From Ascidiella aspersa (Eukaryota): a DNA stretch of 64,000 nucleotides. Made by a program: the position numbers and the translations under genes. The notes under the pieces were generated by a model. The model was not told the DNA's origin and made no database searches. It worked only from the letters and a program-made list of their open reading frames with translations. The stretch covers positions 930,001-994,000 of the forward strand of contig OZ004610.1 of the NCBI GenBank assembly GCA_963924565.1, in the 5' to 3' direction. Of this stretch, positions 10,301 to 64,000 are shown in pieces (position 1 is the stretch's first letter; every line of letters starts with the position of its first letter).

Positions 10301-13300
10301 CTAAAGTAAACAATTCGTTTTATTTATTTAAGTTGATGAATAAAAACCTAAAACTTGTTAATTTGACTTAAAGCTAAACTAGAAAGCACTATTGGAACAA
10401 ATATTCAGGAAAACCTGCTAAGAGAGCAAAACACTGATTACTGAATATTTTTCGTGTAAAATAACAAAAAACCTTAGAAGTTCGACAAAAAAAAATTATT
10501 CGACTGTATTCTATAGCTTTTCCAAGGCAAAATATCTATTCCCTGGTATCCACGATTGCATAATTGTACTAAGCATTTACAGAGAACTTCACTAAAAGTC
10601 AAACCCCCTAAAACTGACAGAGAGATGTTTGTTACTGTAGCGTTTTTGTTGTTGAAATAAATATTAACTTAAAACGTTAGCAAGTCAAAATACTCGATCA
10701 GCTAAGTTATAAATAAAAAATAAAAAGTGTGAGCGCGTATATTTGATTTAAAGCAATATTTACATAAGTACAACTAAACATTCACAAAGCACTTTATGTA
10801 AAAGTCTAACTACGAAACTCACCATCATGGAGTTAGCCACGCAACTTCCGCCCACTTCGACCAGTGACGTCATTTCCGGTCCAGCCACAGTTCGTTCGAA
10901 GTTCGCGAGGATTTGTGTGGATGGCGAGCAGTACTTGTAGTAGACCCGCACGTGCATTAGCGCCATACAGGCTCCCGTGTCCTGTGAGTATTAGCAAAAA
11001 AACTTGAAGTTTAAAAACCAGAGTAAAACCAGGATCAGACATTTTATTAAAATGAATATATATTTCACCTATACTGGCATCGTCAGTTCCGATTTCAAAC
11101 TGTAAATATTAGCAGGTGCAAATATTCTTTAGACTTTCCTGTCTTAGTCAAAGTCAGTCATTAATAAGTTCTAGTTATTTACAGGAAACTCTAAATAATA
11201 TTTGCTTCCATTTGTTTTTGTTTTTTTCATAAATTCATTGTCGTCATTTACGTGGAAGGGCGAGGAGATGTCTTCATATTCTACACATTCAGTTTGCCTT
11301 AGCAGGTGTTTGTTAGTGCTTGGGAAACCGCAGTTTACATAAACACGTCAAAAGATCGCTTGCTAAACCCCAGATTGTCTGACTTTTACAAGCAGTTTAC
11401 ATGGCGTTTTAAAAGCGTCCGGTAGGCGTTTAAGTGTTTTTGTGCTGTTCGGCCGTTACAACTCCTTGCATGCAATGGTTAAGGCTATGGAGCTGTTTTA
11501 AAACTAAATTGTTCAGTTTTTGTAAATAGATGTGCAATTAATTTTGTGTTGTTTTTTAATATGCCTAATAAAGGCAAATAATACTTAGCCGCCCAAACCC
11601 AGGAGGTGCCCAAAACAAACAAAACAATTTTGTTTTCCCGAGTTAAACGGCTGTGGCCGATAAAAACTAATATAAAGTCAGCAGTCCCATTAATTATATT
11701 ATTATTAACAACGTTATGTTTTACGCATTGCTTTGCCAAATCTAATTAAACAAACAAGACGGTACATTGCATTTTCACGAAAAGAAGCTTTCTTTACTAT
11801 TTTAGTAATAAGCTACATATCCGCCTCTACACTTCAAAGGAAGCTTATTAGCGTATTTTTTGACGAACAGAGAGTGGAAAACCTTGTGAATGGTAGCACG
11901 TGAGCAGAGCGATTGTTTAGGCAAGTGGCGACTGTTTATATAAACACACGAGTCGTGTCCGACAAGCGAATAAAGACCGATCGAATTTACGACCCGGTTG
12001 GAAACGCGACTTCTAAAGCGACGCAACCCACAAAAAGACTGCTGGCAATAGACAAAAAATGTGCCTGGTTGGCGAAAATACAAATACACGTCAACTTTGT
12101 GCGATATACGGTCACTTACCATTAACAACATTGGCTAAAGTTAAGAAGCAGCAATATCATATACAAAGCATTACCCACGCATAACTCTCCATTGCAAACT
12201 TATAAACCAGGTGTAGCTATCAACGAAAAATAACAAATGTCAGTATTCTAACGCATAGAACACGTTTTGTCTAAAATGCCCGTTTTTGTCTTTAATTTGC
12301 TGAAAAAAAAACAATGTACAAATTAAACTATTAACTTGTTTGTAATTGTTCGAGTTGTTTTCACAAAACCTGATTTCACTCCAAAAGTGTGTGGTTACGA
12401 ACCTGAAGTGCCAAGTAAATTCCTTTCTTCGTCAAAGGTCCGATTTCTCTCGTTTCGAAGTTGGTTTCTTCCGATCCGGGTCCAAAGCGTTTGTCTGCGG
12501 CGATTGTGTCGACCTGGATGTGAGAAAACACCAAATTAATGAACCGAGACGTACATTGATAGCCTGGTGTCGTTTTAACGCCTTGAACCTTGAAAAAAAA
12601 CGTGTGAATTTGGCTTGAAATCGCTTGTGGTCTGCGCCTAAAGGATTGTGGTTGCCTAATTGCCGTAACTTTGCACCCGGCTATGCACCAGCACTGCCTC
12701 ACGAACAAATTACTTTGAATGGTTAATTAACTGATGTTTAAGTAATGTTGCTGCAAAAATAAGATGAAAGACTCAACTTCGCGCAAAATAACGTTAACCA
12801 TTGATTAATATAGAGCACTGATCCAAGGTATTTTTGTGCAACTTAAGTAATGCCTTTTTACCACGAAAACTTGATTTACGATAGGAGGCAACTATTACAT
12901 AAACCTTTTTTACAGTAGAAAGCATTAGAAGGTTGTAAATCGTTTTTAACCGTATAGAGAAAAGCAAACAGCATACAAAACGCCTAAGTATGCTTAACTG
13001 CTAGTCATAAATCGTTATATTGCTATGCAAGGGAGTTTTCAATGAGCTGTTATTACCACGACTGGCAAACAAGGCTCACTAACACTACAGCATTTAGTGC
13101 AAGTGTGCAAGTCAGCAAAATGCGTGTAATCTGCTGCGTGGGAACAAATACTGGCCAGCTAACATGGCCGCTTGAAAAGGCCCAGGTTTTTTTTATGCCT
13201 ACTTTTTAAACCAGGCCGACAGCAGGCCTCATTTTCTGTAACGTGGAATTAAAAGCAACTTATTGATTTTAAATTGGCCTGTTTCATTTATTGTGGCCTT

Positions 13301-27199: not shown

Positions 27200-27990
27200 C
27201 GATAATATCGAAGCCGATATCCGATGCCAAGTTGCAGCATCGGTACTTGTCCGATACTGGAGGGTATCATATCTAACAACTGGCGATTAAACCAGGGAGT
27301 CGAACCGTTTGGCTTTCCCGGTTCAGGTTCGGTTCGGGTTCAAAGATTTTTTCGGAATACGGTTCAGTTCCGGTTTCGGTTTAGAGGAATTTAAAAGTTC
27401 CGGTTCAGCTCCGGTTCAACCATCGTTATTTCAAAACCGGTTCAGATACAATATAAGTTGCGTTAAATCTCAAAATGTGGGTCGATAAATGTAGAGAATA
27501 ATCTTTGAATTGTAAGTCATTCAATCAAAGTCACGTGACGTATTAAAAAAGCAGCTATTGAAATATCTAAAAAATAAAAAAATTAACTTTTTTTTATTCA
27601 ATTTTCAAATTTGTTCATAAAATTTTAAACATGGCGAAACTTGACACTTTAAAAATACAAGTTAAGACGTCATGCTGGAGTGAACCGCTTTTATTTACAG
27701 GTACGGGTTCGATTAAGGTTCAGGTACTTTCAAATTATTCGGTTCAGTTCCGGTTCGGCTCCTTAAAAACTTACACAAAACTGTTCAGGCCCGGTTCGCT
27801 TTGACTCCCTGAATTAAATTTCCTAACGCTAAAGAAAAGTTTGGCCTAATATTCTGAAAAACAAACCTTTGAGCGTTTTTATTTCATTCATTTTCCTTGT
27901 CACTTGGTATCGGATCGAATCGTGATGCTTTTTATTCAAAAATATCGGGCATCTGTATCGGAATAAAAGTCAAGAATCAGAAATCCCTGG
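27200..27990. mobile_element. Decayed CCGATA/TATCGG-rich MITE, interrupted by the GAACCG MITE
   Basis: Similar to 35058-35443 (TAGGGATGTCCGATA...) and to ~34560-34660; repeated CCGATA motifs on the left and TATCGG motifs on the right, ending in ATCCCTG. Confidence 0.5.
27293..27811 (+). mobile_element. Non-autonomous hAT-like MITE (GAACCG family), copy 1
   Basis: TIR CAGGGAGTC(G)AA...TTGACTCCCTG, subterminal GAACCG/CGGTTC arrays, degenerate 8-bp TSD (GATTAAAC/AATTAAAT); homologous to 46035-46627 in the opposite orientation. Confidence 0.85.
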
Positions 27991-35400: not shown

Positions 35401-38400
35401 GGTGTCGTTATCGGAATGTCAAGTATCTAACTTAGAACCCCTAGTAATATGTCTGCTTTTAGTTTTAACTTTTAGAAAACTAGAATTAAATCTGAAAGGC
35501 TCATTAATATTTAATCTCATTGAATTAGGCTTTATTTTTTTCGAAACATCGAAAACGCATGCTTTAATATTCTATTAGGCCTACCATGTCTACGACGAAG
35601 ATAAAAGTCAAATAAAAATTTGAATAAAATAAGTTTTAAACAGAATAAAGCTTGATAAATATTTGTAGAAAGTATATACTCCACCATTAATGGGAATTTT
35701 GCGCAGCCTGCTAATTCAAATATACAGGTCGATAATGATTTCCCTCTAAGCATCTTATAAAATTTTAAACATCTCCTGACTTTGGCCGTTTTTCATTTTT
35801 GTCTGAAGCTCAAACCGCTTTGTTTTGTAGTTTGAATACGAGGTAAATTTTTTTATTTTAGAATTAAAAAAAAGTGATACACGTAATTGCCTAACGTCAA
35901 AATTGAGTAAAAGTTTCATCCAAAATTCCAAAATTTAAATCCGAAAAATTAAAGTGGATAACAATTGCTTAAAACAACAAGTTCACTTCACTGCAAAAAC
36001 TTCCACGAAACGAAGTTAAAAGTAAGGCTTTTTAGCATTAAATACAACTGAGCTATATTTCCAGTATTGAAGCTTATTGATCGGTATTACAATCCAGCGG
36101 TAATATGATTTTGTCAAATCGTAATATTCGTGCCACATTCAGTGGTATTTGATGCTTAGCCAAAATAGTAAATTACTTCCTATTCCACAACACAAAACGT
36201 GGACCTGCAAGTCGCAAATTATTTGCAAAATGCGGAATAAGTATCAAACGACGGTAAAATGTTTGAATTGAGTAAAAAAACTTTAACGTAAAATAAAGAA
36301 ATCAATTTGTTGCAATTAACGTGCAACTTAAAATCGAGCAAACTTTTACCTGAGTTCGCCGTACTCTCCCCTTTCTTCTTTAATGTACTCAACCAGCATA
36401 CAGAACTCGCTAAAGTCTATGGTTGGGTCTCCATCGACATCCATGAGACTCACAAGCGTTTCCACTTCATCCTGATGAGGATTGTAACCCAAAGCTCGCA
36501 AAGCCATCTCTAGGTCACTGTAGATTGTATAACGTCGAGATAGTTGTTAGTTTGAGCGTCATAGAATACTTAAATCGCTATCAATCTTAAAACGCCATCT
36601 TTAGGTCGCTGTAGGTGGTTAACGTCAAGCTTGTTGTTAATTTGAGCATCATAGAATACTTAATCCGTCATTATTCTTAGCATGGTGGATAAAACGACAT
36701 AGCGGCTGTTGATTTGAGTATCATAGAATACTTAAACCATAATTTGCTTAGACTACTTAAACCATTAAGTTTCTGTGGTTATAAAAAACAACAACTTATG
36801 TGGTAATTTGAGCGACATAAAAACTTTAAACTACAACAAAATAGCCTGCTAACTAAAGTTGCTGTATACAGCCATGGTTTTCCGATTAATATAAACAATA
36901 CCAAGATGCGCTTGGAATGTATGAGGTTGATAGTTGTTCTGAGAGAGTCCTGTGCTTTCCCTCTAGGGAGGCACGTTTTTAGTTTAAGAACTCTTGTAGT
37001 ATATTGTAAAACCACGACGACCTAGCTGTTAATTTCGGCTAAGTGCTACAGAATTCTTAAACCGAGGCGAAAAGACTTAACCGTTGTTGCTGCAAAGATG
37101 TAGGTTTTGGTTAGCTTTCAAAACGAAAAACTATATTGAAGTCAAGCGCCATAAAAATCTTAAGCCGCCGGGAAGCTTCTAAAGTGTAACTTCCTAAAAT
37201 AAGAGCCAGGGAAATGGTAAAACACCGAGCCATAGAATACGCCCGGAATGTCCGTTACCTCGTGTTTTAGTCTGATATATACCTCGATGTTTTGAAAAAA
37301 AGTATGACTGCCTTTGAGTCAATTAAGGCAAATTCAAAACATGACGTAAAACCTAAAAACAAACATGACAAAAACTAAACAAACGACGTAACACCTAAAA
37401 AAAACTAAAGTAAAACCTAAAAAGCATACCGTAAGACTTGAAAAAAACATAACGTAAAATTTAAAAAAAATTAACATGAAGTAAAACCATAAAAACACAT
37501 TACGATAAACCTGCAAACAATACACTGCGTAACACTTAAAAAACAAAAACCCGACTTCAAATCTCACCCCAAGTCCATCATCTTCGAGTTATCGATGTCA
37601 TAGAACTCGAATATCTGCCTGAACTCATCGACCTCGTCAGCTGTGAAGCCAGAGATGCGCCTTGCTTCGTACTGCTGCTGTAACCTCCTGTGACCACCAC
37701 TTGACTTCCTGGATGATCGGTCCCCAGCCCTCCCCTTGCCTCCCCTGCCACGACCACCTGCATCCCTGGCGTAACAATAGGAAGAATGTAAGCGGTTTGT
37801 GGCGTATAAAGGGTTAGCCTAATACAGTGTTTCACAACATATTTTCGCGGCATACAAACACTGAAGCGCAAACTTTTTTTCACTTAACTTTTTGTAAACG
37901 AACAAAACATGAAAGATTGGCATTAATGCAATTTAATTAAAGTGAGCCATGCCTTCGTATAGCTTATGAATTTTTTTTTCAAATAAGTTAAAGCAATCTC
38001 GCTCATAACCAATCTTAATCTAACGTACCCAATAAAACTAGCGCATTCGGCGGCCCAACCAAATTAAGCGACGAACCAATTTGAAGTCGCGCTCCATCAA
38101 TTAAAAAGTAGTGCTTTTATGACAAATAATAAAACCTAAAAGCGTTTAAAACTCTCAACAGTCTCAAGTGACGTTTTATCGCAAGTTTGTTAATTTGTGA
38201 CGTAAACTTTTATTAGGTGATCCTATAATTGTGTTTCGTGCTAATATCAAAGTGCAATTATTCCTACAAACAAATGTTGATCGATTTGCTTAGCATTTGT
38301 TACACAATCTTTTGCAAGATTTTACTGCAACCGGTGTGCTCATTCACACATGGGTAACCCTAGATTACTGTACACCAGGGTCCAGGGGCTCCGAACCTGT

Positions 38401-46034: not shown

Positions 46035-46627
46035 CAGGGAGTCGAACCGGAACCGAACCGGAACTTTATGAACCGGTTTTGGCTCAATTTTTTCCGAACC
46101 GTAACCGAACCTGAACCGGATTTATAAGAATTTAAGGAGCCGAACCGGAACTTAACCGAATAATTTGAAAGTACCTGAACCTTAACCGAACCCGAACCTG
46201 TAAATAAAAGCGGTTCGCTCCTGCATGACGTCACAACTTCTATTTTACAGAGTCAAGTTACGCCATGTTCGAAATTTTATGAAAAAAATATGAATATTGA
46301 ATGAAAAAATCGTTTATTTTTTTTATTTTTTAGATATTTCAATAATGAGTTACTGTTTTGTTAATAAATCACGGAACTTAGATTAAATGACTTACAATTT
46401 AAAGATTATTCTCTATTTATCGACCCACATTTTGAGATTTAACGCAAATTATATTGTATCTGAACCGGAACTTTATGAACCGGTTTTGAAATAACGATGG
46501 TCGAACCGGAGCTGAACCGGAACTTTTAAATTACTCCGAACCGAAACCGGAACTGAACCGGATTCCGAAAAAATCCTTGAACCCGAACCGAACCTGAACC
46601 GGAAAAGTCAAACGGTTCGACTCCCTG
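46035..46627 (-). mobile_element. Non-autonomous hAT-like MITE (GAACCG family), copy 2, 593 bp
   Basis: Perfect 15-bp TIR CAGGGAGTCGAACCG/CGGTTCGACTCCCTG, perfect 8-bp TSD TTTAAAAG (46027-46034, 46628-46635), many subterminal GAACCG motifs. Confidence 0.92.
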
Positions 46628-48162
46628 TTTAAAAGCGATAACGGAAACTAAGCTTTCTATGAAAACAAACACTTCTCTTTCTTATGCCTAACTTTTATGA
46701 AATAAAAATTGATAATTTACACTCTAAATTACAAGAGTATAAATTATTAGGTAAATACTTATTTTTGATTTAACCAATACCTATACAATACCTGTGATAT
46801 AAGCCTTGATTTAACTCATTTAAAAAAATATTTTGACCTAAAATGGCTGCAATAAACATGTTGTTGCTTTAACGTCTTGGTAAACAAAAAAAATAAACAA
46901 AATTTATAATAACAAATAATTTTGTGAGAAGTTCAAAGTAATATTTAACCTGTTTAAATAATAAATTTTCATGGATTTCTCGAAAAACGTATATTGCAGT
47001 TGGGCGAATAAGAGTTTGTTAAAAAATATGTGGTAATTCGCGGGTAAATAAATAAACGTTCACGTTCTTTATGTAACACCACTTTGTCGTCGGCTCCGAC
47101 TGCATTCCATAATTTATTCCCGCCGAATTATTCATGCTAAAATTTATTTCTTGAAATTCTGTAGGCCAGAATGACTATTTGTTATAGTCAACTCACAGGT
47201 TGGTTATTATTTATTCCTAGCCAAATGCTGTCAATAGCGAAGCATTCCTCGCTAAAAACATTTGGCGGACACAGACTGCAGTTAAAAACTAAACAGTTAT
47301 TACATTTCATAAGATGTTAGTACTTTACAGCACCGAAATTGTTATTTAAAAAAAATACAAAACCAAATGATAAATTATAATGGTTGACAGGCAGAGCCAG
47401 TTTTTACAAGACAAGGTGTAAGTGTTGGGTAGTTCTACAGCAGAAATGACAAAAATGCAGATTATTTTGAATTTGTTCAGCTATGGTGCAGTATACACGA
47501 ATGGAAACTTCCCCCTCAAAATTTTGTGTTGTAGCTAGCAGTATAATAAACAATCATGCATGTTTTGTGCTAAAAAGCATAATATTAGCAACTTCTAGAC
47601 CCTATACTGTGAAAAATATGGCAAGCAAGTGCACCCATGAGTAATTTTAACAGGCCCCACCTGAGCACCAAAAATTAAATTTGAACCCTAATTTTTCCAT
47701 TTGTTAAACAAACATGCATTTTTGACCTTGCCACCCTATTTTTTGGCTGTTATCAAATTTGAAATACGTTTTAGATATGACTGAAACTTGTACAGTATAT
47801 CTTATTCCCAATCCTAAAGGAATTGGAATAATATATGCTCTTTTACTTTACATTAATATTGATAAGGTGTGGTATAAGTTTTCTTTTTACATTCTGAAAA
47901 ACCATGTATATATATTATAATTGATTTCTTAGATTAATGAGATTTATCAAATTGTCCATTGATGTAAAGTTAAGTACAGAAAACTTATTATTCAAGGTAA
48001 AACTTTTGCAATTCAATAAATTCTTAATAGTATGAAAAGTTATAATTCCATTTCAGATTTCTCTTTAAGCAAACATTTCCATAGGTATATAACTATAAAT
48101 TCTTATGTTTTTTTTTTGGAGGAGGATGCTTGTAAGTTAGAAATTGACTAACGAAGGGCAGT

Positions 48163-51100: not shown

Positions 51101-54100
51101 CAACTTTATAAGTAACTAGCATTATTGCGACTATATGTACTGTGTTAATCTATTTGGCTCTTTAGAAAAAATAGAAAATTACCCTAATTGTGAAACTAAA
51201 AACAGATAAAATAAATGGAATGTTGATTGTTTGATATCTTAGACCAGTAATTTTCAAAGTGGGTGCCTTAAAGCTTTATTGCAGTGTTTCTAAACCTTGT
51301 TCGCAGCAACCCAAATAATAAGCGTAAGTTTTACAACAAGGCTTTGGGCGACATAATTCTTTTCACTGACTTATGGTAAGCTTAAAATCAACAAAGTGCA
51401 AAAAAGTTTATTTATTTGATCCATGTCTATTACTGCTGCAATTTTTGAGATATATTTTAAATATTAAATTTAAGCATGTGAACTAATGCAGTCATCCACC
51501 CAAACAACATCAAATGGCCCTGCAATTAGCTTCACGACCAATTGGTTAAAAAACACTTCTTTAGCGGGCCCAACAAAGTTTATAATGCTACACCCTAACC
51601 AAAATAGGTAAATTATAAAAAGTAAACGTATGCCAAATAGGAATCATGATCATTTAAAACACTGCAAGCTCGTCAGCCACATAAAATCCTTTAAAGAGAA
51701 ACTTGCGAATCACTGCTTTCGTCTTTATGATCTTTATTTCATTGTCAATATTGCTGTTAAAAAACAAAAGTATTTCTACCTATGTCTGTCTACTGCAGTT
51801 GTTTAAAAACAATCACCAACATTCCTAAAGTAATATTTTTTTCTTTTATTTTAAGGTGGCGAGATTAAAGAAATGGTTGGAAAAGCAAGCAAGGTGTTTT
51901 CAGAGCAGACCTGCATTGATTTTATCCCCAAAACTGAAACACACAACAAATGGATTATTCTTAGTGGAAAGGGGACCATTTGCAAGTAGATTAATGTTAT
52001 TATTGTATATACATTCCAATTGCTGCTCATTAAATGGTTTCTCTAATTGTATTATGTTGTACTTATTTTTATAAGCTGTTTATTATAATATAATATTATT
52101 TATCTGTCATTAGTTAGTAGTGACTATTGTTAGTGTGACACTGCAACCTAATTTTTAGTAAGAATCGTTTTCACAATTTTTGTGTTCTTATTTAAATTTT
52201 TTTAAGTAACATTTTTTCATTTACTTGTGTATAATTCAGGTCAAATGTTGGCTGGAAAAATGAGGAATCACAAAAAATCTTCTTGGTAGAGCGATGTGCG
52301 AATGCTGGAACGGTTGAACACCAGTTTTTACACTTACTGGGGTTCTTTCATGAGCACGTGCATCCATTGAGAGACAATTATATTAGGATTGTGCAAAAAA
52401 ATATCGCAAAAAGTAAGTCATTAGGTGAAAATCTCCTTCCTTAAAATAATTTATAAACTTTTAAAATTCAATTGATAAACGTTTAGTTATGTCTTTACTT
52501 TACCAATAAAAAACAACTTTATATTTAAAAATGAAAACAAAAACTTTTTCGGAGCTAAAACATTTACTTTCTACGGTTAAACTATTTAAATTTAACAAAC
52601 TTAGTGATAAACTTTCAGTTATATCTAAAAATGTCTTACTCTAAAAAGGCTAAACATTTATTTTATTCAAAAAAAAATATATATATTTCGGAACTAAAAC
52701 TTCCAGTAAAACTTTTCTACACTAAAACAACAAATTAATTTAAATAGATGAAGAAATAAACTTTAAGAAACTTAAGGATGACGACACAATTGGCTTAGAT
52801 GTGCGTTACGACATAAATTCGATCATGCATTTTGGCGGTTACTTCTTCAGTTCATCTCCTTCTGAACCAACTATATTGGACAGGGAATCGAGTAAGTATA
52901 AGAAGGTGTATGTTTGCCTTGATTGCCAGGAACAGATCCAGGATAGGTTTTGGGTGAAAAACTATATTTTTAGCCGAACTTCTATCTATTTTTACTCCGT
53001 TGTTTTTCCGTTTTAATGAAATCTACGGCCAATGACGCCATACATACTATGACGTGTAACGTGTACTCATTAACTTTACAAAGTAAAATTTTGTTAGATT
53101 AAACTATTACTGTTGTTATTTCAACCAATATGTAAGTCTGTCTTATGTGCCTTATACGTCACGTACCCTTCTAAATTAAAAGTTTTGCGAATTTAAATTA
53201 AATGAACGCCTTTTTTGTCGATTCGATTGACTGGCAATTTGCACACGAATTCGCTTAAAACAGCAAGTGTTTTAAAGATGTATATTTTTATGACGTCACA
53301 CCAGAGGTTACTTGGTGACGTGATCCATGCAAATTTTCATTTATAAAAAAAAAGCAAATTGTGAAGTAAAACTGTTGCCAATTGCTATCATCTTATCACA
53401 TTGGGCATTTTAAAACCATTTTTTGATGAATATATAAACATTAAACATTCTTAATAGAATATTTGTTTCATGATTTCTATGTCGCATACAAAATTTTGAT
53501 TTACAGATAAACCTATCAAATTTCAACGAAAAACGATGACATCCAGTGACGTTTTAGAGGTCAACAGACTTTACGCTTGCGGTGAGCTGCTTTTTGACGA
53601 AATTTCAGAACAAATTTCCTGCTTTAAACCTGTTTAATTGTCAGCAGCTTTTAAAAAGTTGGCTCCAATCGGCAGCAACCAACATGCCATGGTTGTGCCA
53701 CTTGCCACTAGCACAACACAGGTTGCCAGTACGATGAAGCCACTTGACGCAAACTTCGTGTCAACCACAGTGGCCACAGCAAGCACAATCACTGCTTCCA
53801 ACTCTGGTATTGAAGTTGCAAAAGGGAGTGAAAGTTCCAAACTAAAGGGCGGAGGTAATTGGAGCAAATGGACTGAATACAGCCATTGTTGGCAGACTTG
53901 CGGAGAAAAAAATGTTAAGAGAAGATTCAGGACTTGCAAAGACAAGGTTAGAAGATTGATTTTACTAAACCGGACATTAAAAACTACAAGTGGGCCGATA
54001 AAACCACAATTTTTCTTTACTTCAGTGGAAATAAACTGTTATGCCAGAATAAAACCTCCACATACGTTTACAGGGGTAAATCGAATCCAACTCAATTTCA

Positions 54101-55642
54101 CTGATAAATCACTTGCGAGCCTAGTGGTCGCACATTCCAACGGTCGTTAGTTCGAATCTCGCTCAAGTTTTTTTTGTGGTAGTGTTTGTATATCGTACAA
54201 AAGTTACCTTATAGCTAAACTAATGTAATAGCTGAGTAAAAATAAATTGTTGGTCGCTGATTGCCACGTTCTTGAGTTCAAGTCTCACCCAAGCTAATTA
54301 ATGTTCAGAATGTGGAGCATTGGGCGCATATATCAGTGTTTTAAACAAGTTATTTTTAAATGACTTTTCAAGTCAAATCTTTTGCAATTTATCAAGTCAA
54401 GTCCCAGTTCAAGTTATTAGAGCCAGCTTCAAATCAAGTCATTGGCATAAAATGAAACTTTAAACTATTACAATAAATAAACTTGTCCGATTTTGAGCCG
54501 TAACTCAACTAAAAAAATAACAAAAACACAACACAAAGCATGAGCAGCTCGACTTGATGGCCGTTAAGGTCCTTTTACTGTCCTTGTGTTTTTCTGTATT
54601 TTTTTTAATGTTTGCAAAGAAGCACAGAAATCAATTGAATCTGAATCTGACAGGCAAATTATTTTATTTAAAAATGGAGATAAAGGCCAAATGTAATTAA
54701 AAATATTTGATTGAAACACTTAATTTTAATCCAAGTCATTTGACAAAATTACTTGAGTCCAAGTCAAGTCATTTGAATACAGTGACTTAAGTACACATAT
54801 GTTAATCGAATTAGGTCATTTTAACAACGGCATATTCCCACGCCTATGTGTTCGAATCCTGCAACCTTATATTTTTTCTGTATTTGTGTACTTTTTATAG
54901 GTGAACGGATGTACCGGCGAATTGGTGGAGAGTGAGTTGTGTCCTGCCCTGAAAAGTTGCATTGAGAACCCTTCAGCTTGGGGAGAATGGACTGAACATC
55001 TTTCATGTTCCAAGACTTGCGACGGCGGTAAACGATGGAGGTATTACCTTTTATTCAGTGGTTCTTCAATGAACAACTGTATGTACGTTATAAGACGTGG
55101 TATGTACTAAAGCAAGGGTTCTCTACCGGGGTGCCATTTCTAACGCTCAAGGGTGCCGAGAGATCTTTAAGAATCTTTTTGCTCAACTCTTACAACTTTT
55201 TGTGTAAGATTAAAGTGGAATAAATCTATTTATAACTTCCTACGTTATGTAGAGCAGATGGGTTTTTGTTCCAGTTCCGTTTATTGTGACATTCTAGTGA
55301 TTTAACTACGAAAACAATCTTGTAGGGGTGCCGGAATCTATTAATTATTTCTGAGGGGTGCCGCAAGCCATAAAATATTGAGAACCACTGTACTAAAGTG
55401 ACGGTCCCGGTTCGACATATCCAAATTTAGGTGTTTAAAAAAGTTTTTGAATGTCTTTAAATTTTATTTAATAAAACTATTTGGCTGCTATGTTGAAACA
55501 TCCTTACTAATATTGTCTTTTGTTTATTACGTCAATAATAGAGTTCGCAAATGCTTGGAATCTGAAGTGGAAGACAGGAAATGCATCGGTGATTACTTCC
55601 TCATCCTGGATTGCAACACTCAGCCATGCTCCGACTCTAAAG
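48163..55642 (+). CDS. Type II membrane astacin-family (M12A) protein with antistasin-like Cys motif, Thr-rich linker and two TSP1 repeats (Tast-like); predicted catalytically inactive
   Basis: Exons 48163-48196, 48284-48418 (basic tail plus TM segment), 49385-49480, 50245-50411 (CDLPCPFGY..CDC; YEGDI prodomain motif), 50976-51111 (KWP..VPIPY), 51856-51985 (TCIDFIP), 52240-52412 (HQFLHLLGFFHEH..RDNYI), 52748-52891 (YDINSIMHF), 53507-53581 (SDVLEVNRLYAC), 53645-53946 (WSKWTEYSHCWQTCG), 54901-55040 (WGEWTEHLSCSKTCDGG), 55542-55642 (CNTQPC). All phases are compatible. The 3' end is either read-through to a stop at 55656 or further exons past the retrotransposon. Confidence 0.92.
48820..49100 (-). 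mobile_element. Possible decayed CR1/L2-type LINE ORF2 3' remnant
   Basis: Translation LFNIHVKEMVPAHL...YVAYK...LQKRF loosely resembles the LINE RT C-terminal tail; weak. Confidence 0.25.
49584..49880. repeat. Degenerate local tandem duplication
   Basis: Two copies of TATTTGGTCACTAAA..CCCAAAAGGTTTT and of CTAGATATCAT..ATAAATTGTTTTAA. Confidence 0.65.
54111..54169 (+). repeat. tRNA-derived SINE-like fragment
   Basis: A-box-like CCTAGTGG, B-box GTTCGAATC and ACTTG/CAAGT terminal pairing; too short and degenerate for a tRNA gene. Confidence 0.35.
55113..55390. mobile_element. Non-autonomous hAT (Charlie-like) MITE, 278 bp
   Basis: Imperfect TIR CAAGGGTTCTC/GAGAACCACTG, perfect 8-bp TSD TACTAAAG (55105-55112, 55391-55398), internal GGGGTGCC motifs. 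Confidence 0.88.
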
Positions 55643-55914: not shown

Positions 55915-56118
55915 CGCAAAATTGTGAAGCGTTCCTTATTTTGAAAAAAAAAATATTAATTTTACGTCGAACTACAACATCCAGCCATATCTTGGGATTT
56001 ATTTCAAACGTTTACAAAATGCTACCTACTTAAAACTTCTACTTTGAACTGATGAATCATGGTTGTGCGGAAGATTGCCAACATTTCAGTATAAATTATT
56101 GGTAAACAGTTCCACCTG
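55915..56118 (+). mobile_element. Decayed Penelope-like element 3' remnant
   Basis: Frameshifted RKIVEAFLI (GIY-YIG C-terminal-like) followed by a degenerate copy of the 44771-44840 hammerhead-containing sequence. Confidence 0.45.
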
Positions 56119-56199
56119 ATTTTCCAAATATAAAATAATCAACATTTAATGCGCAGCCAATTTGCTTGCTTAGCCAAGACCCTGTTTGTTAATATTACG

Positions 56200-56678
56200 T
56201 GTTAGTTTTTTGCCTCTCGCTATTGCTCCATTTCTCGCTTTTGCGCGCGCATAATGGCGCGACGCATCGCATACGCACACTCACTTAATTAGGCGTGGTA
56301 GTGCGCGCCTCTCACGTAAAGAATGCAACTAGCTTCTAGCCTTTGGGGCCAATTTAGTTGATATATAAAGCTTTTGTTTTGCGGTGCTTGGTGCAGTCAC
56401 CACCAGCATCATTACTGAAGACACTATACACGCCAGACATCAAACTTTGGTATGTTTTATTTCGTAACCTTTTTTGTTTGTCTATGAAGTATTGAGCGCT
56501 AACAATTTCCTCTTTCGCCTTACAGAAAACCTGCACCGATTTCTCTACTGTTTTGATTTGTACGTGCGAAAATTGTACGTTCGCTATTGTCCTTGTAGAC
56601 GCAAGTAATAATAGAAAGAAGTGCTGAGTATTGCAAAGCTTGATTTCTACAAAAGTTTTCAAAGTCTCCCGTCTTACA
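56200..56678 (+). repeat. 5' LTR (~479 bp)
   Basis: TGTTAG...CTTACA termini followed by a 2-nt spacer and TGG; the first 290 bp match 63711-64000; the 3' boundary is inferred. Confidence 0.85.
56362..56369 (+). promoter_or_regulatory. LTR TATA box
   Basis: TATATAAA with initiator-like GCAGTC ~30 bp downstream. Confidence 0.6.
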
Positions 56679-56687
56679 GCTGGTGAG

Positions 56688-57123
56688 GTTGTCCCGTTGC
56701 ACTGAAGTGCAGCGTACGAAGTACCGTCGCTCGGCAATAAGTGCCTGCGACTCCTGTTGTCCCGTTGCACCACAGTGCAGCGTACGAAGTACCGTCGCTC
56801 GGCAATAAGTGCCTGCGACTCCTGTTGTCCCGTTGCACCGAAGTGCAGCGTACGAAGTACCGTCGCTCGGCAATAAGTGCCTGCGACTCCTGTTGTTCCG
56901 TTGCACCGAAGCGCAGCGTACGAACTACCGTCGCTCGGCAAGAAGTGCCAGCGACTCCTGTTGTCCCGTTGCACCGCAGTGCAGCGTACGAAGTACCGTC
57001 GCTCGGCAAGAAGTGCCAGCGGCTCCTGTTGTCCCGTTGCACCGCAGTGCACCGTACGAAGTACCGTCGCTCGGCAAGAAGTGCCAGCGGCTCCTGTTGT
57101 CCCGTTGCACCAAAGTGCAGCGT
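56688..57123 (+). repeat. 68-bp tandem array, ~6.4 copies, in the retrotransposon leader
   Basis: Units start at 56688, 56756, 56824, 56892, 56960, 57028, 57096. Confidence 0.97.
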
Positions 57124-57271
57124 CAGTGCTTTCGACACGCTCAAGTTCAGCACGTTGTGCCGTTTGCGCTCTTTGTTTCCGTTGTAGTAAAGCACAACGT
57201 CCGTCGTCTTGTGTCACCACGCATCGTGCCTGCAGGGCTCTGCTTAATTTCCTGCAGCATTAAGTTTTTCA

Positions 57272-60200
57272 TTGCACGCTCTGACCCGAGGCTTCTCCAT
57301 TGTTACCCGAAGTACAGCACATTGCGCATACACCGTGGATGCCATTATTGTCGCATGGCAAGCGCTAAACCGATTGTACGTAGACGTCGAAAGTGAGATG
57401 AAGCAAGCTGAAGGTCGCCCTACAGTCATCTCGTTGTTACCGGATGTCAACGCCCAATACCTTCACCTTATGTCTCTATGTGGCAATATCCTCGACAACC
57501 AAGTCGTGCCAGGATCCAGCTCTACGAAAGCACAGTGTATTATTGGCTACACTGAATTTCAAAAGCACGTGCAAGAGTGGCTTGACCTCGTGAGAAGTTC
57601 TTCCGCAGGCCCATTGCATACGCCGCTGCCTGACAGCCCCGCTGATGATGCAGCTCGTCGTTCAGTCCGAGGAAGCATCACAACAAGACCATCGTCGAGG
57701 CAAAGCAGCACTCGACAGCGGGAGAGCCGAAAAAGGTTGGAATTGGCACGCCTTACTAGAGTACACGAAGAGGAACGTCTCGCGTCGCAAAAGCAAGCCG
57801 CCGAGAGACAACTTCAGCGACAGGCAGAAGAAGCAAAGGAAGAGGCTCAACGTCGGGTAGAAGAGGCGAAAAGAGCGGCTGAGCGGAAGACCCAACGTGA
57901 ACGAGAGGCATTGGAGCTTGAGTTTCAAAAAAGTTTACGCGAGACTCGTCATCGCCACGAGCTATCGGAGCTAGAAGCTGCCTGCGACGAGGAGGAATCG
58001 AACTGCGGCTCTAGTCGTCGAAGAGGGCTCTCTCTCTGTAACTATTCGGATTCCATAAATCCGATTAACCCTCGAGTGTCAAGAAAAGAAGAAGCTGCGG
58101 AGTCCAACTGTGGTTCAACTCGCCGAAGAGGGCTCTTGCAACGCAACTTTTCAGGTTCTATAACTCCGCTTCTTCCCGCAATCGAGTTTCCGCACATATC
58201 TTCTACTCCCAGATTGAGCGGTCCGGCTAGTCTTGGCCATGTCCCCCGTTCAACTCTTTCTGCTTCCGTTGCAATTACGACGTCAGAACGGTCGACAGTT
58301 CCAGTTTTCACTACAACAAGCCACGCACCGGATTTCCGCAACGTTACCCAACGCTCGACCAGATTTCACCCGACCGTCGACACTTTTCGTTATAGTCCTA
58401 CGAATGAACCCCGAAACCTTCAAAACCCCTCGAAAAGCTTGTACAATACGGGGTCACGCCCACGTGATCACACGAATCATTGTTGCAGAGGTGAAGTGGG
58501 CGAACGCTTTCTACCGAAACCTATAGTGGAGAAGTTCGACGGCGATCCGATGGACTATTGGAGCTTCATCAATCGATACACCATACATATTGGCAGGAAG
58601 GTCGATTCGTTTGACTTGAAGCTCAACTACCTTCTGCAGCACTGCCAAAAACATGTTTGCGATAAGGTAAAGCATCATGCTGTAAACCGGAATCCGCAGG
58701 ATGCTTTCGAAAGTACTCTACAAGATTTATACAACCGCTACGGGCAGCCGCACATAGTAGCTCGTCGCTGTGAAAGCCTTCTAAACGAACAACGAAAGCT
58801 AGCTGCTAACGATGCCGAAGGTCTAGAGAGATTCGCCGTCCTTCTAACGAACTGCTGCGCAGCTCTTGAGCAAATACGCGGCGCCTCTACAGTCGATTCT
58901 GTTGGCTTTATAACGGCCATAGCGGCAAAATTGCCAACTAAATTGAGGGACCGTTGGGTGACTTTCTCTACAAGTACAAGATACAGCCGGTCGAGTTGCA
59001 GCGTTTTCAGACTTTTCCGAATTCGTCAACCTTCAGAGTAAGGAGGCCAACTCAACTTACGGAAGAAGTTTTTTGGCGGATCAATACAACAAAGATGTAG
59101 CCCCGCATGGCAACAAAGCTGCCACCTCCAAGTCTAAGCGACAATTTGCTACAACTTACACCACCGTCGTCGCACCAACTTCTACTGAGAGCGAGGCTGT
59201 TCGACAATGTCCACTTTGTGAAAAATCCCATCGCCTGGTGAATTGCGAATAATTTCGTAGAAAGGCCATCTCCGACCGAAAAGAGTACTTGCGAACTGCA
59301 TTTCGCTGCTACAGATGCTTGCGCCACGGCCATACTGTTCGAAACTGTCGCAGTGACGTCACTTGCAGACAAAGTGGCTGTAGAAGCCGTTTTCATCATT
59401 TTTTGTTGCATTTCGTCAAGACTGAACGTCCCAATATCACAGAAAAGACCGCAGCTCGTCAAAGCTCTGCACGAAGTAACTGCCTACATTCTTTATCGAA
59501 GGATGCGAATACGAAGCAACTTTCTGCTTATCTAGACATGGTTCCAATATGCGTTCGTTATGAAGAAAAAGAAGTTCAAACTTATGCGCTGTTAGACTCC
59601 GGTTCTAACACGACGTTTTGCGAACGAAAGTTGGCCAGCTTACTGAACGCTACATCTACTGAAAGGTCAACAAGCATCCACCTAAGCACGTTGGGTTCCG
59701 CAAAGCGGGAAGTCAATACAGCGTCTATATCGCTATCAATACGCCCCTTGGAAGGCAGTGGGGAGATCTTCTTACCGGATGTGTTGCTCATCGACCAAAT
59801 CCCCGCAAAGCCAACTGTTGCCCCACCTCAATACGAATTGGATCGGCATGAATACCTCCGCGGTGTTAATTTGCCATGCATTACTGGCGGGTCGGTAATG
59901 CTACTGATCGGCAACGACAACGCCCTTGCTCATCGTTGCCTGGAGAGTCGTTTCGCACCAAACCCTCGTTATCTTCCAGACGCTATCAAGACACCCTTAG
60001 GATGGCTATTAAAGGGACCTTCACTCGCAACTCGATCAACCGAGGATAGCGCTAACTTCCTGTTAAGAACATCGGGTATACCACGAGAGGTAGACGAACT
60101 TGCAAGCGCTATTGTCAATGACGAGGGAGAAGTTATTCCCTCTCCACACGAAACTGACGTAACGCACGTGGATTCTCTCATGCGCTGGATAAGTAACCAC

Positions 60201-63200
60201 AAGGAAGCGGCCGAATTCGGTTTACAGTATTCCAGAGAAGACGTTGTAGCTTACAACATGATGTCTAGACTGGTGGAACTTGTAAACGGCCATTTCCAGC
60301 TCCCTCTTCCATGGAAGAACGACTCCGCAATCCTCCCCGACAGTATACAGATGGCACGTCAACGATTGACAAGTTTAAAGAAACGCTTATCAAACGACGC
60401 AAGGCTTCGCCAACAATACATCGAACAAATAAAGTGTCTACTCGATAAAGGATATGCAGAAGAAGTACCCTCCGATCAGAGTGATACAACGAGTCGCACT
60501 TGGTATTTACCGCACCATCCAGTCATAAATCCACAGAAGCCGGACAAGGTTCGAGTCGTCTTCGACTGCGCTGCAAGATGCCAGGGAATCGCCATCAACG
60601 ATATGCTAATGAAAGGTCCTGATTTAGTGAACTCACTGGTTGGTGTACTGATGAGATTTCGGAAAGGCCGAATTGCAATAGTGGCAGACATAGAGGCCAT
60701 GTTTCATCAGGTACTTGTCGAGCCTCGAGACCGTGACGCTCTGCGGTTCCTTTGGTGGCCAGGAGGAGATATGTCCAAAACGCCCTTCCCACATCGCATG
60801 ACCGTCCATATTTTCGGCGCCCGGTCTTCTCCCAGCTGTGCAACATTTTGCTTGCGCCAAACCGCCAAACAGTTCGGCAAATTATTTCACCCTGGAGTTG
60901 CGCAAACCGTATTGAAGGGTTTTTACGTAGACGACTGCCTTGCCACAGCACACGACTCGACTACAGGAGTCCAACTAGTAAAAGACTTACGAAAGCTACT
61001 TGCTAAAGGCGGATTTAAACTGACAAAATGGTTGTCAACAAGTGATGACGTCATGGAATCCGTTCCCGTTGAAGAAAGGGCAAAGGCTGTACAGGAAGTA
61101 AAACTGGGCGAAGCAACGCAGCAGCGTGTATTGGGAATAATATGGAACGTAAAGGCCGATGAGTTTCAGTTCGAAATCAGCTTCCCCGAACAACCTCTAA
61201 CACGCCGTGTCATGTTGTCCATCACGAACTCCTTATTTGACCCGTTGGGGTTCGTAGCGCCGGTCATACTCGAAGCAAGGCTGATCTATAGAGACCTCTG
61301 CCATAAGAAGGTAGATTGGGACGAACCAATAACAGGCTCCGAAGAACAGCGATGGAATACATGGCGCCACAGCCTACGTCATCTTCATGACGTAAGGGTT
61401 CCTCGTTGCTTCGAAGCATTGAATATCCGTCCTTGGACAGGAACTCAACTTCACTTTTTCGCTGACGCTTCCAATTCTGCACGTGGCGCAGTCTGCTACT
61501 TACGAAAGTTTAATGAACAAGGTGACGTCAAATGTTCACTCGTTATGGGAAAGTCCTTGTTGTCGGGTGCTGGAAAACACACTATTCCAAGACTGGAATT
61601 GGAGGCTGCACTGGATGCCGTAAAGCTATCCCGCCGTATCCAGGAAGAATTGGAAATCCACGATTGTCCATGTATCTTTTGGACAGATTCCTCAATTGTA
61701 CTTCAATCGTTAAGAGCAGAAACCAAGAATTTTCCGACATTTGCACGAAACCGTCTATCGCAAATCCTCGAACATACGAAATCCTACGACTGGATGCATG
61801 TTCCAACCGAATTAAATCCGGCCGATCAAGCTTCACGAGGAATGTGCGCCCAAGCTCTGGTAAAGTCTGGAATGTGGTTCAACGGTCCGCCTTTCCTACA
61901 GCTTTCTCCCGACAATTGGCCGAACCGTTTTGCCCAACCACCGACCGCTTCCCCGCAATATAAAAGCTTCAACCTCGATAAGACACCAAAGCAAGTGTTC
62001 CTGTGTACGTCCGACGTCCCGGCTACCGATCGCATAATCTTACACTTTTCTTCGCTCTACCGTCTGAAGGTTGCCGCAGCGTGGTTCTTACGAGTGAAAT
62101 CATTTCTATTGTCCCGAAAACGAAACGAACCCGAAGCCAGCCTTGATTGCTCACCCCTTCCTGTTGAAGAGTTACAGAGAGCAGAAGAAGCTCTAGTGAA
62201 ATATGTACAACACGAAAACTTCCCGCAGTGGATGAAGTCCGCGGTGCCTAGACTAATGGGAAAGCCCACGCCTCTCTACAAACTTAACCCAAAATTGATA
62301 AACGGGGTATTACGTGTAGGAGGAAGGCTGCAAAAAGCACAAATTCCCTTCGATTCCAGACACCCAGCAATTCTCCCACAGCTTTCGCGTCTCACATACC
62401 TCATCATCGACCACGCACATCGAAACATAACCGGTCACTCTGGCGCCAATCACACGCTGAATGCTTTGTGCCAATACTACTGGATCTTGAACGCCAGAGT
62501 AGAAGTCAGTCGCGTCATACGCGAGTGTTTGTTTTGCATGAGAAGAGGTGCCAAACCAGGGGAGCAGTTGATGGCCGACTTGCCCACTGCTAGACTTCAA
62601 ATCCGACAGCCACCTTTCTCCCATACCGGAGTAGACTACTTCGGACCGTTCAAAGTTAAACATCGAAGAAGTACTTTGAAACGATACGGATGTATCTTTA
62701 CGTGCATGACCACTCGTGCAATACATTTGGAAGTCGCCCAGACCTCACTACGGACTCTCTTATCAACGCGATGAGGCGCTTCATTTCCAGACGAGGTCCA
62801 GTCACCAACATATATTCCGATAACGGAACTAACCTGGTGGGAGGAGAAAGAGAACTGCGTGAAGCAATACGAGAATGGAATCTGGTTCACGTACAGACCT
62901 TCTTCAGGCAACGTGAGATTAATTGGCACTTCAATCCTCCGAGCGCTAGTCATTTTGGAGGCGCTTGGGAGCGTATGATTCGATCGGTACGCCGAGTTCT
63001 ATTGGCAGTGGCGTCCGACAAGCAACTTGACGACGACGCAATACACACACTGTTCATAGAAGTTGAAGATGTCGTGAACTCCCGCCCATTGACGAAAGTT
63101 CCATTGGAAGCCGGAGAAGACCTTCCTCTTACTCCAAATCACTTGCTGAAGATTAACCCTGCGATCAGCCTTCCCCCGCTCGTCACCGATGCAAGCGACT

Positions 63201-63523
63201 GCTACACCCGACAACGCTACCGACTTACACAGTACGCCGCCGACGCATTTTGGAGGCGCTGGGTAATCGAGTATCCGCGTACTATAATTGCAAGAGGAAA
63301 GTGGCTAGACAGAAACGAAAACTTACGACCGAACGACATCGTTCTAATAATGGACCACTCCACTCCTCGTGGTCGTTGGCCTTTGGGCCGTATCGTTAAA
63401 TTGCACCCGGACAAACACGGAGTTGTCCGCAGTGTTGATGTTACCACATCCGGATCAACATTGACCCGACCAATCGCAAAACTTTGCGTCATCTTTCCAG
63501 CAGCCGCAGACGATGACCAGTGA
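57272..63523 (+). pseudogene. BEL/Pao gag-pol polyprotein, disrupted
   Basis: Gag (coiled coil; FDGDPMDYWSF), Zn knuckles CPLC..H..C, CYRC..H..C, C..C..HH..LH, protease LLDSGS, RT YVDD, RNase H FADAS/IPRLEL/WTDS/NPAD, integrase HHCC plus VDYFG/SDNGTN/WERMI. Lesions: frameshift ~58965-58970, TAA at 59250-59252, frameshift ~62737. First in-frame ATG at 57398. Confidence 0.93.
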
Positions 63524-63710
63524 CGGTGATCGGAAACGGTGATCCCCGATGTACATCCATTATCCCTGACGTCCATCCATGCTACTCTTTGAGTAGCAAA
63601 CATCCACGCTACATCCGTAGCAACGAACATTACGCTAGCCGCGAACGGCAAAACTTTGTTTTTGTATAAAAAATATGTTACTTATCGTACCCTATTTTTT
63701 GGGGGGAGTT

Positions 63711-64000
63711 TGTTAGTTTTTTGCCTCTCGCTATTGCTCCATTTCTCGCTTTTGCGCGCGCATAATGGCGCGACGCATCGCATACGCACACTCACTTAAT
63801 TAGGCGTGGTAGTGCGCGCCTCTCACGTAAAGAATGCAACTAGCTTCTAGCCTTTGGGGCCAATTTAGTTGATATATAAAGCTTTTGTTTTGCGGTGCTT
63901 GGTGCAGTCACCACCAGCATCATTACTGAAGACACTATACACGCCAGACATCAAACTTTGGTATGTTTTATTTCGTAACCTTTTTTGTTTGTCTATGAAG
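63711..64000 (+). repeat. 3' LTR (partial)
   Basis: Matches 56200-56489 with no differences seen by eye; preceded by the PPT. Confidence 0.95.

Follow-up and report, generated by a model that had tools for sequence, protein, structure and literature searches.

The self-primer of Tf1 is 11 bases long, and the cut by RNase H falls after it (PMC7175516, available text). Tf1/sushi, Tcn1, and TAR elements are described as self-primed, on the basis of a contiguous match (PMC6317226, available text), and the accessible part of PMC3601003 mentions hairpin priming only for chromoviruses and their ancestors. The Belpaoviridae, as described by ICTV, are tRNA-primed, with an 18-nt primer-binding site (PBS) for tRNA-Arg or tRNA-Gly, and their replication is poorly understood (PMC8742986); for the Achilles element, the accessible text gives a PBS for tRNA-Tyr (PMC4580426). 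The term "PBS" is absent from the main text, in its accessible part, of three BEL/Pao papers (PMC554778, PMC6238403, and PMC3118150). Priming from a splice junction in BEL/Pao elements was found in no report in a literature search by titles and abstract openings, the scope of which stopped short of subscription journals, Repbase, GyDB, and supplements. For both BEL/Pao and Gypsy elements, 5′ UTR repeats are said to be common (PMC8742986, PMC4580426), and arrays in the leader are known from both groups (PMC3286476, PMC4580426, available text).

The window, i.e., the whole stretch of 64,000 nt of Ascidiella aspersa DNA that was analyzed, contains a BEL/Pao LTR element that starts at position 56200 and ends just past the window (Table 1). 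The reading that we favor, with a probability of roughly 0.8, is that this element would prime its own reverse transcription in the manner of Tf1, the self-primer being gated by the splicing of an intron in the LTR. Taken together with the description given here of the tandem array in the leader, this model is still quite probable.

The element and its supposed tRNA primer site

The two LTRs (452 and 453 bp) are identical at 451 of 452 aligned positions, apart from one indel, and gag-pol is split into three reading-frame pieces. Hence, the window copy is young but broken. The gag-pol domains were found by Pfam search in the BEL/Pao order (gag, RT/RH, IN), the start of gag was placed by comparison with sister copies, and the closest named proteins come from Phallusia (69%) and Ciona (57%). 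Among the characters that define Belpaoviridae, the TG..CA LTRs, the target duplication, and the polypurine tract are all present, and an 18-nt tRNA PBS beside the 5′ LTR was not found with an incomplete host tRNA set of 44 genes. As judged from its coding sequence, the element is a BEL/Pao, with a putative variant of priming. Searches of a phage collection gave no match, and those of viral contigs gave no relatives. Within gag (window 57994–58171), there is a 73-nt direct repeat spaced by 105 nt, and 33-nt repeats in this region differ in number among sister copies.

Table 1. Features of the BEL/Pao element (window coordinates).
Feature	Position	Strand	Remark
Target-site duplication TTACG, 5 bp	56195..56199	.	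Other copy directly after the 3′ LTR, beyond the window end
5′ LTR, 452 bp, TG...CA	56200..56651	+	
TATA-like box	56362..56368	+	Motif position; transcription start inferred at ~56395
5′-proximal strand	56401..56407	+	Predicted 7-bp pairing with 56679–56685 (fold of intron-less L035)
Exon-1 half of predicted self-primer, 6 nt (LTR 245–250)	56444..56449	+	
LTR intron, 76 nt, GT..AG	56450..56525	+	RNA-seq joint; precise loss at 8 genomic loci
Exon-2 half of predicted self-primer, 5 nt (LTR 327–331)	56526..56530	+	
Predicted cut	between 56530 and 56531 (LTR nt 331/332)	+	
Primer-binding equivalent, +4..+14 after LTR	56655..56665	+	Perfect complement of the spliced junction
Supposed PBS region	56679..56685	+	Predicted 7-bp pairing with 56401–56407, closing the 5′ domain; also acceptor- plus donor-like
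Array, 6.4 x 68-nt units	56688–57123	+	TRF; predicted SL1 (unit 8–27) and SL3 (unit 39–64)
gag-pol (DUF1759, RVT_1, Peptidase_A17, Integrase_H2C2, DUF5641)	57339..63523	+	Three reading-frame pieces here
Polypurine tract (PPT)	63701..63708	+	Sequence
3′ LTR	63711..64000	+	Continues to G000:C4:994163

Elsewhere in the window, one finds two inverted copies of a ~490-bp repeat (27287–27773 and 46125–46633), 71–95% alike and probably MITE-like, as well as small tandem arrays at 7955–8067 (23 nt x 5), 36503–36679 (90 nt x 2), and 37336–37475 (22 nt x 6.4). Two stretches are host exons, one with an ephrin-receptor ligand-binding domain (12379–12726, minus strand, E 6e-9) and the other with a weak match to thrombospondin type 1 (53638–54147, plus strand).

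A tRNA PBS had been placed upstream of the array in the preliminary description, and this part of it does not stand: the LTR ends at 56651, and the TGG taken for a PBS begins at 56681, 29 nt after the LTR. The 14-mer of the required tRNA 3′ end occurs 18 times in the genome, 17 times at copies of the window element and once at a non-tRNA site, and a T-arm-anchored pattern for the required tRNA has no match in the genome. Among 44 host tRNA genes, covering eight anticodons only, the 3′-end match to the element is at most 5 nt, and one gene has a 9-nt internal match. A TGG abutting the LTR is absent from all five BEL families of the host genome (the four besides that of the window element show 48–57% RT identity), and a TGG after the LTR is absent from seven of the eight outside groups whose LTR end is defined. 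In the remaining one (L165), a TGG occurs at +2, yet this group fits the junction rule described in the following section.

Acceptor- and donor-like motifs stand 3 nt apart just before the array (window 56664–56687); they are kept in most copies, and the shallow RNA-seq shows no use of them. Host tRNA genes occur in tandem arrays (G000:C3:31376889-31614312, L115, and L116), of the types Lys/Glu/Glu with a period of ~660 bp, Arg-TCG with ~172 bp, and Cys with ~260–280 bp.

The LTR intron and the complement of its spliced junction

A 76-nt intron is spliced out of the LTR, and both upstream ATGs of the leader sit inside it. Its joint is present in 8 of the 86 reads of RNA-seq run X6, with seven different starts, any copy of the family being a possible source. 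Once the exons are joined, the junction is the perfect complement, over 11 bp, of positions +4 to +14 after the LTR, versus 7 bp for the best contiguous match. By the measure used for Tf1/sushi elements (at least 10 bp, starting 0–5 nt past the LTR), this corresponds to 11 bp starting after 3 nt, found only across the splice junction. The primer site occurs with at most two changes in 18 of 18 copies compared, rows that were chosen by the site pattern, and the bases that follow it vary. As for splicing of the array itself, from the donor-like site at 56683 to the acceptor-like site at 57257, no joint or loose end was found in X6 at a depth of 0–4 reads; four reads of this run go from 57100–57200 into the array, and the deletion in L102 ends away from splice sites.

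L035 and L042 precisely lack the intron in both LTRs, and six other LTR loci show the same exact loss. The pattern search for intron-less sites gave 31 matches, 30 of which were examined, and 10 lie in the LTRs of eight loci; a separate genome pattern listed 48 LTR sites. Such exact losses from LTRs show that spliced RNA was reverse transcribed.

The sequence able to pair with +4 to +14 exists in the spliced RNA only, which alone is predicted to form the 11-bp duplex. In the fold of L035, a natural intron-less copy, this duplex comes with helices of 4 bp and 7 bp that would extend it to the 5′ end of the RNA; the 7-bp helix joins the supposed PBS to the 5′ end of the element, and the array begins 3 nt past this domain. 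The probability of the duplex is 0.85–0.91 in L035 versus 0.00 in the unspliced window copy, and in five of seven groups it is 0.56–0.93 when spliced versus at most 0.11 when unspliced. Families D and E give 0.98 and 0.94 with 25 nt of leader and 0.00 and 0.01 with 120 nt, where the duplex is 4–6 kcal/mol worse than local hairpins. These rival hairpins are formed by repeats that duplicate the primer site, one of 37 nt in 2.2 copies in family D (L059:3054-3134) and the other of 40 nt in 3.3–4.3 copies in family E (L064:2964-3094; both in oriented coordinates). It is possible that these repeats, by competing with the priming duplex as predicted, act as an on/off switch.

The complement is also found in most groups of related elements. 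In a first test, 13 element groups were analyzed with the LTR ends given and any GT..AG pair allowed. The own-pair complements are 11, 11, 12, 15, 11, 8, 9, 12, 10, 15, 10, 11, and 10 bp, and the 156 cross-family control pairs reach 10 bp four times and 11 bp never. A blind test on 28 loci, with strict splice signals and without the LTR end being given, found 10–15 bp in 15 loci (six of them from one family), and in all 15 the complement starts 0–6 nt after an ACA or ATA end. In its two controls, 10 bp is attained by 1 and 2 of the 28 loci, respectively, and 11 bp by none. Of the 13 misses, three have a misplaced start codon, three have a contiguous 11-bp match without an intron (family B, L178, and L127), and five (L123, L166, L193, L197, and L202) were recovered at an LTR-like end by the anchored or a relaxed search. 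Because the control of the relaxed search reached 8–11 bp, only position counts for the latter. Two remain without explanation, L173 with nothing at all and L180 with nothing at the LTR end. Overall, the pairing rule fits 19 of the 23 testable groups, the exceptions being L173, L180, and the pair L129 and L139, which show 8 and 9 bp only.

The letters of the junction differ in every family, and therefore junction and site changed together. In the phylogenetic tree, junction and contiguous types are interleaved; it is poorly resolved, so the origin is not datable from it, and it has no named reference elements. BEL/Pao sequences occur in bacterial MAG contigs (L201, L202, and L203), probably as host contamination; L202 is very divergent, yet it has a 12-bp junction complement.

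Some broken copies have ends close to the predicted cut. LTR nucleotide 332 is where L038 and L047 start, and a deletion in L045 ends at 330–332. In L038, an 8-nt match connects LTR 332–452 with unit 2 of the array, and the copy then runs back as far as +3, a suggestive structure, as would be expected if strong-stop DNA had mis-jumped. Since the 56 loci have ~40 internal starts in all, of which these are 3, since two of the three show microhomology, and since a genome-wide pattern gave no further clean break at the predicted cut, the breaks at LTR 330–332 are suggestive only. In L225 (546–1168), the LTR end and the primer site run into the reverse complement of exon 1 and U3. This is a single insertion, with a 5-bp flanking duplication, and its structure is what a fold-back of plus-strand DNA would give. 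A related inverted LTR-LTR structure, also flanked by a 5-bp duplication, is found at L224:726-1151, the two being joined at the primer site or at the exon-1 end. At L215:640-680, an A-rich insertion with short duplicated flanks lies at the end of LTR exon 1, and L224 and L225 have similar runs at the same place.

The duplex might be real without being the primer: it could sense splicing and switch export, polyadenylation, or packaging, with a tRNA fragment or another RNA priming reverse transcription. Copia-type elements are known to be primed by half-tRNAs (PMC6317226, available text), and the variable distance to the LTR end (0–6 nt among families), the local hairpins competing in families D and E, and the 9-nt internal match to one tRNA gene could all be read in this way. 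However, the 3′ end of the duplex is always directed at the LTR boundary, and the breaks at LTR 332 and the fold-back in L225 fit priming. In addition, because the sequence of the site differs by family and tracks the junction, a single host RNA could not be the primer. We consider this alternative to splicing-gated self-priming unlikely.

The leader array

TRF recovered the tandem array of the preliminary description at 56688–57123, with a period of 68 and 6.4 copies. The unit differences given in that description are also correct: the loop variants of SL1, the loop change T51G, T59A, and A63G, the stem breaks (T21C and G34C for copy 4, G25C for copy 6), and the subgroups of units 1–3 and 4–6. 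To this list one can add C6T in copy 4. The units show 94% matches. The array is 60% GC, contains no ATG, and has 49 CpG versus the 16 expected from the window, and a 6-nt palindrome is present in each unit (unit 26–31).

The predicted fold departs more from what had been proposed, which was a unit of three stem-loops. On the sense strand, RNAfold predicts SL1 and SL3, but SL2 is not in the MFE of any unit, and its pair probability is at most 0.16. SL2 competes with SL1 for G27, needed by both, and, in place of its G34, each of A, C, and T is found in six loci. The fold of the sense strand has z values of −3.2 to −3.9 in five of the six units and −1.7 in copy 6, versus −0.4 to −2.0 for the units in antisense; for the whole array z is −5.9. 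Nor do the units behave as independent modules: in the full leader, the probabilities are 0.34–0.89 for SL1 and 0.21–0.55 for SL3 because units pair with one another, and they reach 0.83–0.99 only if the pair span is limited to 60 nt.

A scan of 56100–57500 against Rfam gave one weak, irrelevant match. The open frames that cross the array on either strand have no Pfam match, and they are explained by the lack of stop codons in the unit. Derivation of the unit from U5 was rejected, as the alignment score is equaled by 149 of 1000 shuffles and by 56 of 106 other windows, and the unit as a tRNA copy or a tRNA PBS was ruled out by the tRNA pattern and the gene comparisons.

Two genome searches found 21 loci with 194 array units, counts that are lower bounds because the searches score the best candidates only. 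Elements have 0.6 to 12.4 units, and two loci have far longer arrays with higher-order periodicity: 61 units in L036 (G000:C2:1490126-1494405) and 44 in L038 (G000:C8:19565213-19568218). In the latter, the array is detached from the coding region and inverted relative to its LTR piece. A full or partial unit is present in 21 of the 21 copies found with a leader; L102 retains 0.6 unit, and the other young copies keep at least 4.4. Three sisters with single open frames (2043–2090 aa) carry 6.4, 6.4, and 12.4 units, which shows that the array is no peculiarity of defective copies, contrary to the idea that its amplification helped a coding-dead copy. The number of units tends to fall with distance from the young lineage (Spearman −0.59, p 0.006, for 20 of 21 loci, one locus without a gag match being left out), with the proviso that the loci are related and not independent and that old copies can lose units after insertion. 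A search of 83 outside loci and of 20 loci from other BEL families of the host genome found no homolog of the unit, and most relatives have leaders of 20–320 nt without such an array. The leader of family D (L059) shares an 11-nt word with unit 10–20 (SL1), with no wider similarity and no blast match.

Variants were counted relative to natural copy 3, with L034 and L035 taken as one, after masking the junction columns of last units, the ends of the 60-nt variants in L036, and the columns beside indels. Single-locus variants break SL1 or SL3 in 20 of 51 cases, which is the neutral rate (84 of 204 possible changes, 41%). Variants found in at least four loci break these stems in 3 of 17 cases and leave them intact in 14 (binomial p 0.04), and the comparison of shared with private variants gives a Fisher p of 0.09, or of 0.15 without the two long arrays (range 0.09–0.16). 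The concentration of variation in loops claimed from the window holds only as a trend over all copies, in the weaker sense that shared variants avoid stems weakly (p 0.04–0.16). No compensatory pair was found in SL1 or SL3 among the 194 units of the 21 copies, and one double change occurs in SL2, in two units of one locus. The palindrome is intact in 166 of 178 units. In conclusion, the array is real and probably structured, and selection on it is only weakly shown.

The array lies between the primer site (56655–56665) and the gag ATG (57339). Because of this position, of the strand-biased fold, and of its retention, we tentatively favor, at somewhat less than even odds, a packaging-type module, i.e., a psi-like Gag-binding or dimerization signal. 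It is almost as probable that the array is a functionless minisatellite, in which a GC-rich hairpin unit beside the primer site is gained and lost by RT slippage and unequal exchange, homogenization mimicking conservation. The range of copy numbers from 0.6 to 61, the higher-order repeats of L036 and L038, the lack of covariation with weak stem statistics, and the absence of homologs outside the family all agree with this, and a hot spot of duplication is suggested by the unrelated 37-nt and 40-nt repeats at the primer site of families D and E. Neutral turnover fits less well with the folding bias to the sense strand, with shared variants sparing stems more than private ones, and with a full or partial unit in all 21 leader copies, the young ones having at least 4.4 units except L102. 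Alternatively, the array could act as DNA, as a multimerized enhancer or insulator for which the repeats of the gypsy 5′ UTR offer a precedent (PMC3286476, available text). A CpG-rich multimer near a promoter would suit such a role, but the strand-asymmetric folding and the tolerance of wobble-forming changes fit RNA better, and we regard it as quite improbable. An IRES or shunt, letting ribosomes bypass the folded 5′ priming domain or start after it, would answer the hindrance that an 870-nt structured leader poses to scanning and the loss of the cap that genomic RNA would undergo after the predicted cut, but it is very unlikely. Once the leader is spliced, no ATG precedes the gag start, as suits scanning; related elements are translated behind short leaders; and Rfam gave no match of note.

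Proposed cycle and comparison with known systems

By analogy with Tf1, after splicing and pairing of the junction, RNase H would cut after LTR nucleotide 331, and the reverse transcriptase would extend this 3′ end across U5. The strong-stop DNA would then span LTR 332–452 only, so the intron would be recopied from the 3′ LTR and survive; splicing of the 3′ LTR copy as well would give the intron-less elements. The array occupies the position of the retroviral psi and may be a Gag-binding or dimerization module, in which the number of units would change by template switching during copying, with later amplification at the DNA level to 44–61 units in two loci. In a broader reading, toward which we lean with less assurance, there would be a widespread marine BEL/Pao lineage in which an LTR primer built by the spliceosome replaces the tRNA and splicing licenses reverse transcription. 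The genome would keep intermediates of the process (starts at the cut site, the fold-back insertion with two U3, and the intron-less LTRs), and the units would catch strong-stop DNA through the 8-nt match and seed satellites, as in L038.

If true, a primer made by splicing extends self-priming to a third LTR superfamily and ties reverse transcription to a processing step of the host. It would account both for the persistence of an intron within transcribed LTR sequence and for the empty results that tRNA-based PBS finders can give on these elements. The model predicts an exact nucleotide, LTR 331/332. The array matters less, since leader arrays are known, but it illustrates how kilobase satellites can arise from a module of the leader.

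Arrays in tandem between the LTR and gag, which can reach kilobases, are also found in cqgypsy_24, cqgypsy_25, cqgypsy_66, and the gypsy insulator (PMC3286476, available text). There, they are discussed as DNA regulatory elements, whereas the window unit has a strand-biased predicted RNA fold and its array begins at the edge of the priming domain. The psi of Moloney MLV likewise lies between primer site and gag, with stem-loops and a short palindrome, but it is single-copy and experimentally proven (PMC3265304, available text), whereas the array here has 0.6–61 copies and no covariation, and its psi role is predicted. With the Belpaoviridae (PMC8742986) and Achilles (PMC4580426, available text), the element shares the LTRs, the PPT, and the set and order of gag-pol domains; the difference is the tRNA PBS, present in those and not seen in the lineage of the window element.

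The closest likeness in priming is with Tf1/Tf2, Tf1/sushi, Tcn1, and TAR elements, which have no tRNA PBS and in which a stretch of 11 nt of the element's own R complements the bases after the 5′ LTR (PMC7175516, PMC6317226, available text); the polarity of the duplex is also right for priming after an RNase H cut. The window element differs in being BEL/Pao rather than Ty3/gypsy or copia, in having its primer strand ~50 nt downstream of the inferred start (near LTR 196) instead of at nucleotides 1–11 as in Tf1, and in a primer that exists only after splicing. Because the intron splits this primer, a contiguous search such as that described in the available text of PMC6317226 misses it. The priming architecture is a variant of known self-priming, for which the comparative evidence is strong and the direct evidence weak. 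Going by its sequence, the window element would work like Tf1 without being a member of Tf1/sushi, as it lacks the phylogeny of a Ty3/gypsy chromovirus.
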